64,000 bases of DNA from a virus (IMGVR_UViG_2974655483_000001:96001-160000), one strand, 5' to 3'. Counted from the stretch's first letter, positions 59,774 to 63,444 are shown. A program made the numbers and translations. The notes: generated from the sequence alone by a model not told the origin.

Positions 59774-60914
59774 ACTACAAGGAATGACCGTATTTAACAA
59801 GAATAAAGTAGACACAAAGAAACAACCCATGTTTTTTGGGCAACCTCTTGGAGTGCAGAGGTATGATTCATATAAGTATCCTGTGTTTGACAAACTAACT
59901 CAGCAACAACTGGGTTATTTTTGGAGACCAGAAGAAGTATCCCTACAGAAAGACCGTGCCGATTACCAAACTCTATCGCCAGAGCAGAAGCACATCTTCA
60001 CTAGTAACCTTAAGTACCAAATCATGTTGGATAGCGTACAAGGGAGGGGTCCTGGGATGGCTTTTAGCCCTTACTGTTCACTCCCTGAGTTAGAAGCATG
60101 TATGAATGTGTGGCAGTTTATGGAGATGATTCATAGTCGCTCTTATACTTACATCATCAAGAATGTATATTCAGATCCTACAGAAGTCTTTGATACTATT
60201 TTAGATGATGAGCGTATTTTGGATAGGGCATCATCAGTGACTGAATCTTATGATGACTTTATCAATCACGCTCACGAGTATGATAATGGAACCATGTGGG
60301 AACTGGCAAAGGATGGTCACTATGCAGGACAGTTTGATCGTCGTGAACTGAAACGTAAACTCTATCGTGCAGTTGCTAATGTGAATATCCTTGAGGGTAT
60401 TCGTTTCTATACATCCTTTGCATGTTCATTTGCTTTCGGTGAGAACAAACTCATGGAAGGTAGTGCAAAGATTCTTTCATTGATTGCTCGTGACGAATCT
60501 CAGCATTTGAATCTGACTCAAAATATTCTTCGTAAGTGGTCGGAGGGTGATGACCCAGAGATGGAAGTCATTGCTAGAGAGGAACAATCATGGGTAATGA
60601 GTATGTTCCAGCGTGCTGTAGATGAAGAGAAGATGTGGGCAGAGTATCTATTTAAAAATGGATCTATGATTGGATTGAATGAGCGTCTTCTTCATAACTA
60701 TGTTGAGTGGATTGCTAATCGTCGTATGAAAGCAATCGGCATCAAACCTATGTTTGACATCCCTGCTAAAAACAATCCGTTACCTTGGACGGAGCACTGG
60801 TTAAATAGTAAAGGACAGCAAAATGCACCTCAAGAAACGGAGATTGAAAGTTATGTCATCGGAGGAATCAAACAAGACGTTGAAGCAAACACCTTCGCAG
60901 GATTCTCCCTCTAG
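59754..60914 (+). CDS. nrdB: Ribonucleotide reductase class Ia beta subunit
   Basis: FWRPEEV, EMIHSRSY, LEGIRFY, RDESQH. Confidence 0.98.
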   Translation: MSPAKSELQGMTVFNKNKVDTKKQPMFFGQPLGVQRYDSYKYPVFDKLTQQQLGYFWRPEEVSLQKDRADYQTLSPEQKHIFTSNLKYQIMLDSVQGRGPGMAFSPYCSLPELEACMNVWQFMEMIHSRSYTYIIKNVYSDPTEVFDTILDDERILDRASSVTESYDDFINHAHEYDNGTMWELAKDGHYAGQFDRRELKRKLYRAVANVNILEGIRFYTSFACSFAFGENKLMEGSAKILSLIARDESQHLNLTQNILRKWSEGDDPEMEVIAREEQSWVMSMFQRAVDEEKMWAEYLFKNGSMIGLNERLLHNYVEWIANRRMKAIGIKPMFDIPAKNNPLPWTEHWLNSKGQQNAPQETEIESYVIGGIKQDVEANTFAGFSL

Positions 60915-61242
60915 TGATGAATGCTATAGGGCAATCCTAGATGCAGCAGAACACGGTTGGGATGACCTATTAGATAAGGCAGACCAACCAGCAAACCCTT
61001 TCGCAGAAGAACTTTGGTTAATGGAAAAGAAAAAAGCACAGCAACAAAAAGAAACTGATGACATCGTTGTCAATATGGATGGTGGTGTTGGCGGTAGTTG
61101 GCAAACTGTAGAAACCCCTGAAGAACGCAACACCCGTCATAGTGTTGATAAGGGTGAAGAGTTTATCAAAAGTGGTATGACCCTTATCACAGACATTGAT
61201 AGTGATAAGTATCTTAAATCAGCACGACGCAATTCAAAATAA
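60823..61242 (+). CDS. Hypothetical acidic protein (start uncertain, overlaps nrdB end)
   Basis: Open frame filling the gap to 61242. Confidence 0.55.
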   Translation: MHLKKRRLKVMSSEESNKTLKQTPSQDSPSSDECYRAILDAAEHGWDDLLDKADQPANPFAEELWLMEKKKAQQQKETDDIVVNMDGGVGGSWQTVETPEERNTRHSVDKGEEFIKSGMTLITDIDSDKYLKSARRNSK

Positions 61243-61253
61243 GTATGCTACAA

Positions 61254-61261
61254 TATAAATA
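61254..61261 (+). promoter_or_regulatory. Late promoter TATAAATA (with TGCTACAAT extended -10 just upstream)
   Basis: Consensus immediately 5' of the structured RNA. Confidence 0.75.
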
Positions 61262-61287
61262 TAAGTGGCAGCGCAAGTTGCCATTTA

Positions 61288-61511
61288 CGTTCATCCCTTC
61301 GGGGACGCAAGTAAGTCGCGGAACGGAGCCGTTCATCCCATGCTAGAACTATTATTCTATTCGTCACTCACATGTGCTCAAGCTGATAGCATTATGCTAC
61401 GGATGAGAACAAATGAGAATATTCCTCCCGAATATAAGGTGGAATTGATTGAGGTCATGAAGGAATCAACGCCTGATTGCTATCCATGGGACGCAAACGA
61501 CTGAAGGAACG
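61288..61511 (+). ncRNA. Double glutamine-riboswitch-like element (glnA / Downstream-peptide family)
   Basis: Two CGTTCATCCC...GGGACGCAA...GGAACG units (61288-61325 and 61330-61511); upstream of a YRG peptide. Confidence 0.8.
61340..61504 (+). CDS. 54-aa ORF embedded in the riboswitch P2 stem-loop
   Basis: MLELLFYSSLTCAQADSIMLRMRTNENIPPEYKVELIEVMKESTPDCYPWDAND; GGAG at 61325-61328. Confidence 0.6.
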   Translation: MLELLFYSSLTCAQADSIMLRMRTNENIPPEYKVELIEVMKESTPDCYPWDAND

Positions 61512-61546
61512 GGGGAATAAACCACCCTAACTTCAGGAGTAACAAC

Positions 61547-61714
61547 ATGAACACATTACAAATGGTCAAAGAGCAGATCCAAAAGGCATCTGCAGTTCAC
61601 AACGCACAAATTTCTCACACTTCATATCGTGGTGTTGAGTATTCTACTCGTTGTGTAGAGTCTAAAGAGACTCATGGCACATTCTGTTATCGTGGTCGTA
61701 CTTACAGCAAGTAA
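61547..61714 (+). CDS. DUF4278-like peptide (55 aa, two YRG motifs)
   Basis: Translated by hand: ...HTSYRGVEY...FCYRGRTYSK; AGGAG SD. Confidence 0.85.
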   Translation: MNTLQMVKEQIQKASAVHNAQISHTSYRGVEYSTRCVESKETHGTFCYRGRTYSK

Positions 61715-61735
61715 ATATTATTTGCATACGAACAC

Positions 61736-61760
61736 AAAGCACCCTTAGGGGTGCTTTTTT
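61736..61760 (+). terminator. Rho-independent terminator
   Basis: AAAGCACCC-tta(g)-GGGTGCTTT plus T-run. Confidence 0.9.
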
Positions 61761-61796
61761 GCTATAATAAATACTGACAACCTATACGGGAGAGTC

Positions 61797-62453
61797 ATGA
61801 AACTTTTTCTGGACTGTTCTGACCCAGAGTTAATTGCCTCTGCATTTGAGACTGGACTAATAGACGGAGTTACAACAAACCCCAGTCTCATGTTGAAAGC
61901 AGGAGAGGATCCTAAGCATATCATCAAAGAAATCTCAGCAATCTTTCCATGGAACTCTTCAGTATCTGCTGAAGTAGTTGGAGATACTGCAGAAGAGATG
62001 CTTGATATGGCACAGGAGTACCTGGAGATCGGACCAAACATTACTATCAAAGTTCCATGCACAGTTGAAGGACTGAAAGCATGTAGAGAACTAGCAGACG
62101 AAGATGTACACGTAAATGTAACATTGATTTTTAGTACAGCACAAGCAATTCTTGCTGCAAAAGCAGGAGCAACATATGTTTCTCCTTTTGTTGGTCGTGT
62201 TTATGATCAGCATTGGAATGGAATCTATTTGATTGAACAGATTGCAGATGTATTTGCAACTCATCAGGTCAAAACTGAAATCCTTGCAGCATCTATCAGA
62301 GATCCTATTCAAGTAACAGATGCCTTTAAAGTGGGTGCTGATATTTGTACAATCCCATTACCCATGTTCTATCAACTCTACAAACATATTCTTACCGATA
62401 AAGGTCTAGAACAGTTTGATAAAGATTGGACATCACTACAAGAGAAAATCTAA
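61797..62453 (+). CDS. talC: Transaldolase (TalC type)
   Basis: DGVTTNPSL, IKVP, NVTLIFS, YVSPFVGR, LAASIR. Confidence 0.97.
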   Translation: MKLFLDCSDPELIASAFETGLIDGVTTNPSLMLKAGEDPKHIIKEISAIFPWNSSVSAEVVGDTAEEMLDMAQEYLEIGPNITIKVPCTVEGLKACRELADEDVHVNVTLIFSTAQAILAAKAGATYVSPFVGRVYDQHWNGIYLIEQIADVFATHQVKTEILAASIRDPIQVTDAFKVGADICTIPLPMFYQLYKHILTDKGLEQFDKDWTSLQEKI

Positions 62454-63256: not shown

Positions 63257-63409
63257 ATGAACACAGAGTTCTACGAGGCATTGAGTAACGAAGACGCACT
63301 GCTCGACTTATTTGTTGATCAGTTACATCGTTTTGCTGAATTGGAATTGGAAGAACCTAAGACTACTACTGGGTCAGTAGCTCAGATGGATAGAGCAACT
63401 GCCTTCTAA
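63257..63409 (+). CDS. Acidic 50-aa ORF overlapping the 5' half of tRNA-Arg
   Basis: AAGGAG SD; frame runs into the tRNA and stops at TAA in the anticodon loop. Confidence 0.5.
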   Translation: MNTEFYEALSNEDALLDLFVDQLHRFAELELEEPKTTTGSVAQMDRATAF

Positions 63410-63444
63410 GCAGTCGGTCACAGGTTCGAGTCCTGTCTGACCCG
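63371..63444 (+). tRNA. tRNA-Arg (anticodon TCT), no encoded CCA
   Basis: GGGTCAG/CTGACCC acceptor stem, ACTGC-CTTCTAA-GCAGT anticodon arm, GGTTCGAGTCC T-arm. Confidence 0.96.

Follow-up and report, generated by a model that had tools for sequence, protein, structure and literature searches.

Can a complete protein gene sit inside the stem of a ligand-sensing RNA and, if so, what does such an RNA control? The question is raised by positions 61254-61760 of the viral sequence IMGVR_UViG_2974655483_000001:96001-160000 (64,000 nucleotides, bases 96001-160000 of a 174,670-bp record, hereafter the window), which comes from an S-RIM12/Syn33-type T4-like cyanomyovirus and is 99.8% identical to KX349307 across the region. 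An earlier note, written by a model from the sequence alone, had described here two interlocked glutamine-riboswitch-like units and a short downstream peptide, and every sequence element that it listed is indeed present. The element is a new architectural variant of the glutamine riboswitch, real and conserved: as judged from sequence, positions 61288-61512 hold two glnA-type glutamine-aptamer cores with one P3 helix (the third paired region) in common. The pattern of the first core, unit A, occurs once in the window (0 expected in shuffles) and once in the whole 174,670-bp genome, and because a related region is carried by 412 phage records and its helices covary, the element lies far beyond chance. 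Taken as a whole, the region is best explained as part of a phage mini-operon of two genes, of which it comprises the leader and the first gene; this explanation appears likely. The leader itself would then be a translational glutamine riboswitch in which two nested glnA-type cores surround a real gene and an anti-Shine-Dalgarno (anti-SD) mask covers the ribosome-binding site of the peptide; this, too, is probable. Its parts are the following (ORF, open reading frame).

61288-61293, + strand: CGUUC-A of unit A (CGUUC 61288-61292), 5' strand of the outer P1, pairing with 61507-61511
61294-61305, + strand: hairpin P2a, UCCC-UUCG-GGGA, directly after CGUUC-A; three of its four pairs carry double-sided changes among 22 ORF-free relatives
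61306-61313, + strand: CGCAAGTA, the CGC pocket linker and an A, then the putative E-loop 5' strand AGUA (61310-61313); matches the Rfam consensus CGgAAGUA
61314-61318, + strand: AGUCG, 5' strand of P3, pairing with 61498-61502, with compensatory variants
61320-61326, + strand: G-GAACG-G of unit A (GAACG 61321-61325), inner P1 strand and trailing G, pairing with CGUUC 61330-61334
61325-61328, + strand: GGAG, lying in the loop of the inner P1; from its association with ORF presence, the likely ribosome-binding site for the inner ORF
61326-61329, + strand: inner P1 loop GAGC, read from the sequence
61330-61335, + strand: CGUUC-A of unit B (CGUUC 61330-61334), the other inner P1 strand, with a covarying apical pair
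61336-61342, + strand: UCCCAUG, 5' strand of P2b, holding the inner start codon and pairing with CAUGGGA 61485-61491
61340-61504, + strand: inner ORF of 54 codons plus stop (TGA 61502-61504), a two-Cys helical-hairpin small protein (phrog_504) by profile match and dN/dS
61485-61491, + strand: CAUGGGA, 3' strand of P2b, also the P-W-D codons; P2b pairing is found in relatives
61492-61497, + strand: CGCAAA, pocket linker strand of unit B; CGCA columns at least 90% identical in relatives
61498-61502, + strand: CGACU, 3' strand of P3, pairing with AGUCG 61314-61318
61501-61506, + strand: CUGAAG, last P3 pair and E-loop 3' strand, holding the inner stop UGA (61502-61504); as the anti-SD strand it pairs alternatively with CUUCAG 61531-61536
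61503-61506, + strand: GAAG after P3, with the putative E-loop 3' strand GAA at 61503-61505
61507-61512, + strand: GAACG-G of unit B (GAACG 61507-61511), 3' strand of the outer P1 and trailing G, from the Rfam alignment of an ORF-free homologue and covariation
61531-61539, + strand: anti-SD partner CUUCAG (61531-61536) overlapping the Shine-Dalgarno sequence AGGAG (61535-61539), from covariation and fold; 78% of columns at least 98% identical
61547-61714, + strand: 55-residue peptide with two YRG motifs (phrog_545; weak DUF4278), from profile matches

How would these strands come together? The outer core would be a complete class-I aptamer, with P1 (61288-61292/61507-61511) closing a three-way junction, P2a, the E-loop AGUA/GAA and P3 (61314-61318/61498-61502). 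What takes the place of the loop of P3 is a second, circularly permuted core, composed of the P1 hairpin 61321-61325/61330-61334 and P2b and attached to the far end of the common P3. Structural work on the glutamine-II riboswitch showed a pocket made of a CGUUC/GAACG helix, a CGC strand after the hairpin and a G before GAACG; within the CGC strand the G makes a base triple and the C pairs with the G after GAACG, and the glutamine-I pocket is virtually identical (PMC6698751). Both cores hold this full set (CGUUC, CGC, G-GAACG-G), and in every sequence parsed a G lies directly 3' of each GGAACG. At the sequence level the AGUA and GAA strands are contiguous with P3 as in the consensus, with AAAG in place of GAAG in 26 of 87 relatives. 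Conservation was measured in 91 unique relatives sampled by protein and not by RNA motif. There, 79% of the columns of the outer core and 76% of those of the inner core are at least 98% identical (100% of the inner core at the 90% level), as are all columns of the P3 strands and of 61306-61313. The corresponding figures for the inner ORF are 0% at third codon positions and 43% at first and second positions, so that the pocket nucleotides in single strands are conserved far above synonymous sites.

The pairing itself is supported by covariation. IMG/VR loci were collected with a pattern that left the P3 strand free, and the parse gave 87 unique double units. P3 reads AGUCG/CGACU, AGUCA/UGACU, AAUCG/CGAUU or, through a G.U pair, GGUCG/CGACU; in a further variant GGACGAC stands with GCCGCCC, and in the longer form of the helix the eighth pair flips from U-A to A-U in perfect step. 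Among the 22 natural ORF-free units, three P3 pairs show double-sided changes and RNAalifold picked the nested P1 helices unprompted. The full nested structure is paired in 95.9% of cells in these units, against 85.7% in shuffles (0/500), with a covariation score of 0.258 against 0.084 (0/500), and sliding the partners by one to three columns as a control drops the pairing to 33-56%. P2b was parsed without any pairing requirement, and its base helix is 98.2% paired in 56 ORF-bearing units, compared with 87.6% in shuffles (0/1000), with double-sided changes in four of its five pairs.

Are the two cores nested, or are they neighbours that each form a P1 locally? Canonical sequences give identical base pairs in both arrangements, because units A and B have the same 5' strand (CGUUC) and the same 3' strand (GAACG). 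Units with CAACG in A and CGUUG in B were first found among the peptide-derived loci. A set was then assembled from two scans, each fixing only one side of the apical pair, followed by a strict parse. It holds 222 unique units (order of strands: A 5', A 3', B 5', B 3').

CGUUC / GAACG / CGUUC / GAACG: 163 units
CGUUC / CAACG / CGUUG / GAACG: 50 units
CGUUU / CAACG / CGUUG / AAACG: 8 units
CGUUU / GAACG / CGUUC / AAACG: 1 unit

Apical P1 variants thus make up 59 of the 222 units, spread over 49 distinct inner proteins or hairpins, and all 59 are fully paired if the cores are nested. At the inner P1, CAACG in A is matched by CGUUG in B in 58 relatives; at the outer P1, CGUUU at A is matched by AAACG at the distal strand in nine units (apical C-G to U-A). 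The counterpart of this apical pair in the published structure is C5:G36, one of two pairs in the pocket helix for which conservation is not high (PMC6698751). The topology is nested, not tandem, and this point is settled. The earlier note had argued that neither unit has a P3 hairpin of its own and that AGTCG of A complements CGACT of B, giving an outer class-I-like aptamer and an inner, circularly permuted junction with a common P3. The covariation of P3 and the apical variants bear this out, and the two helices that it had singled out for covariation, AGTCG/CGACT and TCCCATG/CATGGGA, both covary.

The same register is found by Rfam models in a relative that lacks the embedded gene. In the homologue ACG-2014f, which has the same two units with a plain GAAA hairpin as P2b, RF01739 scores 41.1 bits over 92 nucleotides (nt; cut-off 35) and aligns the outer P1, P2a, CGCAAGUA, P3 as AGU[41 nt]ACU and then GAAG-GAACG. 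As the model passes its cut-off in the nested register, the outer aptamer is a genuine glutamine aptamer of class I. Unit B of ACG-2014f reaches 32.1 bits with RF01704 (cut-off 33). Other relatives are loaded differently: S-CAM1 has ORFs in both P2a and P2b, and S-B05 has a different ORF in P2b with its start and stop in the same places.

Is the ORF inside P2b a real gene? Sequence analysis shows that it is protein-coding. It matches phrog_504 over its full length (E 2.5e-30), the ratio of non-synonymous to synonymous changes (dN/dS) in its interior is 0.17-0.22 as against 0.77 and 4.7 in the other frames, and its variable columns fall 19/7/29 on the three codon positions. IMG/VR holds 274 relatives, and among the best 80 of these the ORF lies inside an aptamer in all 80. 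C12 and C47 are invariant, and an AF2 model (pLDDT 78) predicts a two-helix hairpin with helices 12-24 and 30-43. Searches of Pfam gave no match, Foldseek against the PDB none at E <= 0.001, and the protein atlas only unnamed clusters.

The fit between gene and RNA is close. P2 lengths in the 87 units are bimodal, 12-47 or 186-223 nt for P2a and 11-27 or 138-195 nt for P2b, and all long P2s of both units hold an ORF, with the AUG coming 3-6 nt after the start of the 5' strand (at +10 in one case). An ORF lies inside P2a in 22 of the 87 relatives; another 22 of the 87 units have no ORF and keep the whole scaffold. In unit B, 50 of 56 ORFs run through the stem and the core to the UGA of CGAC-UGA-AGG, and the C-terminal DAND or DAKAD is therefore encoded by the aptamer itself; unit A ORFs have their stop either within the 3' strand of P2a or at the UAA of CGCAAG-UAA-G. 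Of 193 units with a P2b ORF, 134 have GGAG in the loop of the inner P1, as against none of 29 with a hairpin only (Fisher 8e-14), and on this evidence the GGAG is likely the ribosome-binding site of the inner ORF. The picture drawn beforehand, of a coding ORF in P2b with its ATG in the stem, its TGA in the P3/E-loop strand and a GGAG at the inner P1 loop, thus holds: the frame is conserved, the dN/dS is about 0.2 and the GGAG tracks ORF presence.

What does the RNA control? Downstream lies the YRG peptide, a full-length phrog_545 match (E 1.5e-35) with at least 554 relatives in IMG/VR, and the double unit stands upstream in 63 of 71 evaluable ones. In relatives, the leader carries CUUCAG or CUUUAG, which either abuts the Shine-Dalgarno sequence of the peptide on its 5' side or overlaps it. 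The fourth base of this motif covaries with the first base of GAAG/AAAG (27 G-C, 26 G.U, 25 A-U and 0 A.C; Fisher 1.7e-6, uncorrected for ancestry), and ORF-free forms keep the same anti-SD platform. The E-loop strand CUGAAG can thus also pair with a covarying partner overlapping the peptide's ribosome-binding site, which implies, at the level of sequence, a glutamine-ON translational switch. An ON precedent is the gifB leader, in which glutamine was proposed to free the ribosome-binding site (PMC6212724). In the absence of ligand, CUGAAG would pair with CUUCAG and mask the ribosome-binding site of the IF17-like YRG peptide; with glutamine, folding of the aptamer would withdraw CUGAAG and turn the peptide on. 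An unconstrained minimum free energy (MFE) fold of the region contains the anti-SD helix, the inner P1 and P2b. The MFE is -77.0 kcal/mol, the anti-SD state -76.7 and the nested aptamer state -65.4, in an energy model that ignores the E-loop, base triples, Mg2+ and ligand.

Two other features touch this platform. GUUCAU 61289-61294 is perfectly complementary to AUGAAC 61547-61552, the start of the MNTL-type peptide, and the two pair in the MFE fold. With P1 open, this could hide the start codon of the peptide, or the complementarity may be coincidental; the pairing is impossible for the MAQVTYRG-type peptides of other lineages. In eight loci (L026, L095, L017, L049, L080, L105, L112 and L090) an extra element of about 35 nt, ACGGAUCC-hairpin-(A/G)AAGGU(U/G), is found between the aptamer and CUUCAG/SD; it may act as one more partial sensor or as a hairpin spacer.

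How does translation of the inner gene relate to the fold? Folding leaves the inner GGAG partly paired: G61325 lies in the inner P1, and G61326, the trailing G, is expected to pair with the CGC strand. Because of this, and because the AUG lies within P2b, translation of the inner gene should compete with folding. Once the RNA is folded, the inner ribosome-binding site and AUG would be buried, and the inner gene would probably be translated mainly before or instead of folding. A reciprocal switch between two small proteins is possible. Positive translational coupling is at least as plausible, because the inner stop lies inside the anti-SD strand. Ribosomes stopping at UGA 61502-61504 would open the mask, the peptide would be made at any glutamine level whenever the inner gene is translated, and the riboswitch would govern only those RNAs in which the inner gene is silent. 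That the stop falls within CUGAAG, that most unit B ORFs end at this same UGA and that the peptide AUG lies 43 nt downstream all speak for coupling; the common stop may, however, reflect common descent, as the C-terminal DAND/DAKAD comes from the aptamer core, and the same platform is kept in forms without any ORF. Coupling in place of reciprocity has a minority chance of being right, and the largest among the alternatives.

A second alternative is that only the outer core senses glutamine, and that the inner one is a degenerate former aptamer kept as an extension of P3 and a translation-control hairpin. It draws on the missing E-loop of the inner unit, on the score of unit B of ACG-2014f just under the RF01704 cut-off and on one relative (L209) in which CGAAAA replaces CGCAAA, alongside CGGCU, in unit B. 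Yet the inner core is conserved like the outer one, it retains every pocket nucleotide named in PMC6698751, the trailing G included, and glutamine-II aptamers bind without an E-loop (PMC6698751). Loss of sensing by the inner core is rather unlikely; in the favoured explanation both sites would be occupied.

Repeated cores may also serve recombination. Promoter-stem-loop cassettes of T4-type phages offer a parallel for the shuffling of small genes. Could the cores be mainly recombination sites that shuffle small-gene cassettes, with the RNA fold incidental? One ORF subfamily lies in P2a in L036 and in P2b in L009, L024 and L105; hhalign matches the ORF family of P2a with that of P2b from one Cys to the other (E 1.5e-4, probability 52%); L226 has an insert of about 110 nt in the inner P1 loop; and L272 is a natural single unit (promoter, CGUUCA, P2b with ORF, CGCAAACGACU-AAAG-GAACG) that arose by deletion between the two CGTTCA repeats. 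From L272, L226 and the change of stem of the ORF subfamily it follows that the repeated cores also recombine. An incidental fold is nevertheless improbable given the compensatory changes in four helices, the conservation of the pocket nucleotides and the retention of the whole scaffold in the ORF-free units; recombination may well occur, without replacing the RNA function. The weakest alternative, tandem aptamers with local P1s that kiss via AGUCG/CGACU, has the published word 'tandem' (PMC2864571) and the identical canonical pairs in its favour and is rejected as highly improbable, since 0 of the 59 apical-P1 variants stay paired in it, the E-loop strands AGUA and GAA are contiguous with outer P1 strands only if the cores are nested, and the Rfam model aligns nested.

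The nested, gene-bearing translational riboswitch remains the favoured explanation, and several observations weigh against it. The inner core has CGCAAA and CG where CGGAAGUA and GAAG would be expected, is thus without an E-loop, and might not bind. The double form is not obligatory, as L272 exists as a single unit. In two lineages the same P3 positions repeatedly carry A.C mismatches (at pair 3 in 13 of 22), for which a plain helix offers no explanation. The match of the YRG peptide to DUF4278 (PF14105) covers residues 26-54 with 20.9 bits (E 4.6e-4), below the cut-off of 25.3; the DUF4278-like assignment in the earlier note is in this sense sub-threshold, with the two YRG motifs and the phrog_545 match in place. 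The window itself has no glutamine family at the Rfam gathering thresholds, and a permissive scan gives 25.8 bits for RF01739 (cut-off 35) and 24.5 for RF01704 (cut-off 33), both on unit A only with P3 collapsed. Comparison with a natural ORF-free form places this in context: the window falls below the RF01739 cut-off because 179 nt separate its P3 strands, and the ORF-free homologue passes. Finally, the Fisher tests and shuffles treat relatives as independent, with shared ancestry uncorrected.

The A.C mismatches have a pattern of their own. In the lineage of L005, L012 and L044 the P3 strands are AGCCGAC(U/A) and (A/U)GCCGACU, both reading AGCCGACU, and the resulting 8-bp helix is quasi-palindromic, its two A.C mismatches being placed symmetrically; in GGACGAC/GCCGCCC, a third lineage, A.C occurs at the same P3 positions. 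The pattern suggests pseudo-two-fold symmetry or else protonated A.C pairs.

A further proposal combines these elements. The RNA would be a two-site, possibly cooperative glutamine sensor that yields a two-Cys disulfide-type protein when unfolded and an IF17-like inhibitor of host glutamine synthetase when folded, and phages would swap stem-embedded genes between the sensor stems as cassettes. As a whole this is speculative and has the odds against it; if true, the unfolded state would correspond to low glutamine or to the period of transcription.

Where does the element lie, and when might it be expressed? It is flanked by a hypothetical gene (60823-61242, phrog_1336) on one side and by talC (61797-62453) on the other, and its boundaries are marked by three features.

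61254-61261, + strand: putative T4-type late promoter TATAAATA, from sequence only
61262-61287, + strand: 5' hairpin with a GCAA loop, an 11-bp stem in the MFE fold; lineage-specific
61736-61757, + strand: intrinsic-terminator-like hairpin and T run (9-bp stem, 5 G-C pairs), ending the mini-operon before talC

The terminator after the peptide had been anticipated and is seen as such a hairpin. The 5' end is far less constant: promoter and 5' hairpin (61255-61287) have 3% of columns at least 98% identical, and similarity to S-CAM8 and ACG-2014a begins only at 61285. Among 83 evaluable relatives, TATAAATA is found in the window and one other locus only. In 54 of the 83, a sigma70-like TTGAC-N17-TAnnnT ends 4-12 nt before the aptamer CGUUC, its -10 often within a palindrome; no sigma70-like site is found on the + strand at the window locus. 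A late promoter is plausible for the window as a lineage-specific feature. Most phages may therefore express the riboswitch operon early, and the present lineage late. A scan of genome contigs with CGGAACGG-N0-6-CGTTCA returned chance matches in unrelated bacteria only, with the double unit in 0 of 120 among the matches listed.

RNA libraries contain the region as small-share contigs, one of which spans 61315-61514 and others of which bridge the ORF or the 3' part of the aptamer into the peptide gene; strand, ends, single transcripts and expression level are not readable from such contigs, and uncovered parts carry no meaning. In run X12, a 2015 RNA-seq library labelled single organism, 244 short contigs from a close relative fall on window 61289-61531, that is the aptamer and the inner ORF, at very high word depth, although contigs cannot rank expression. 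Further downstream, TGCTATAATAAATA at 61757-61770, directly past the terminator T run, has -10-like and late-promoter-like motifs ahead of talC, and a tRNA gene (63371-63444; RF00005, 71.5 bits) follows talC and several small ORFs.

Why does this architecture matter? Aptamers are usually viewed as compact non-coding modules placed in series, and here one is inserted in another with a common helix. Complete, selected protein genes lie inside aptamer stems; their start codon falls within the stem, and they finish, final codons and stop alike, in the putative ligand-sensing core. Standard Rfam scans miss ORF-bearing forms, as in the window, and phage glutamine riboswitches are consequently under-counted, while the embedded genes are currently annotated as ordinary hypothetical proteins. 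The element also offers a natural system to study the competition of co-transcriptional folding and translation on one RNA, to ask whether binding is cooperative when two pockets are connected through a single helix, and to learn how cyanophages sense the nitrogen state of the host and time an IF17-like peptide by it.

How does it compare with what is known? The glnA alignment of Weinberg et al. has wide insert columns, Klahn et al. (2018) did not treat phages, and phage papers list glnA matches without structure (a 99-nt match in S-CREM1; the Melnitz phage paper). No description of a nested, permuted or embedded glutamine aptamer was found in the literature searched, with Ames and Breaker (2011) and Ren et al. 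(2015) outside its coverage. The closest relative is the glutamine-I riboswitch (RF01739), known from the Synechocystis gifB/IF17 leader (PMC6212724). Both have the CGUUC/GAACG P1, a P2 hairpin after a single A, the E-loop CGNAAGUA...GAAG flanking P3 (here by sequence) and a YRG/DUF4278-type peptide downstream, and the phage leader would share with gifB the translational ON logic of releasing the ribosome-binding site (PMC6212724). Unlike glutamine-I, P3 is here a long-range helix and not a hairpin, its far end bears a second core in permuted form, whole genes can lie within the P2 stems, and the element is phage-encoded and sub-cut-off through its 179-nt P3 span. With glutamine-II (the Downstream-peptide motif, RF01704; PMC6698751) the inner core shares CGUUC-A-hairpin-CGCA and GGAACGG, the same pocket nucleotides and the lack of an E-loop; it differs in having no H-type pseudoknot, as GGAACG lies 5' of CGUUC in a simple hairpin, a circular permutation.

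Translation of a short leader ORF also interacts with downstream control in the atypical B12 riboswitches of Mycobacterium tuberculosis; the upstream ORF there reportedly belongs to the expression platform, whereas here a conserved 54-codon gene lies inside the aptamer (PMC11260477). The tandem glycine riboswitch has been cited as a precedent for tandem glnA RNAs (PMC2864571). As there, two sensor domains are physically joined in one leader, and here sequence and conservation suggest that both read one ligand. Unlike the glycine aptamers, which lie side by side with helices of their own, one domain is here inserted in the other with a helix in common. Group I and group II introns carry protein genes in peripheral loops, which encode mobility or maturase proteins. 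In both cases a complete ORF is tolerated in the loop of a conserved structured RNA whose stem is closed at long range. The ORFs of introns, however, sit well inside their loops, whereas the phage ORF has its start codon built into the stem, and the aptamer core itself supplies its final codons and its stop.

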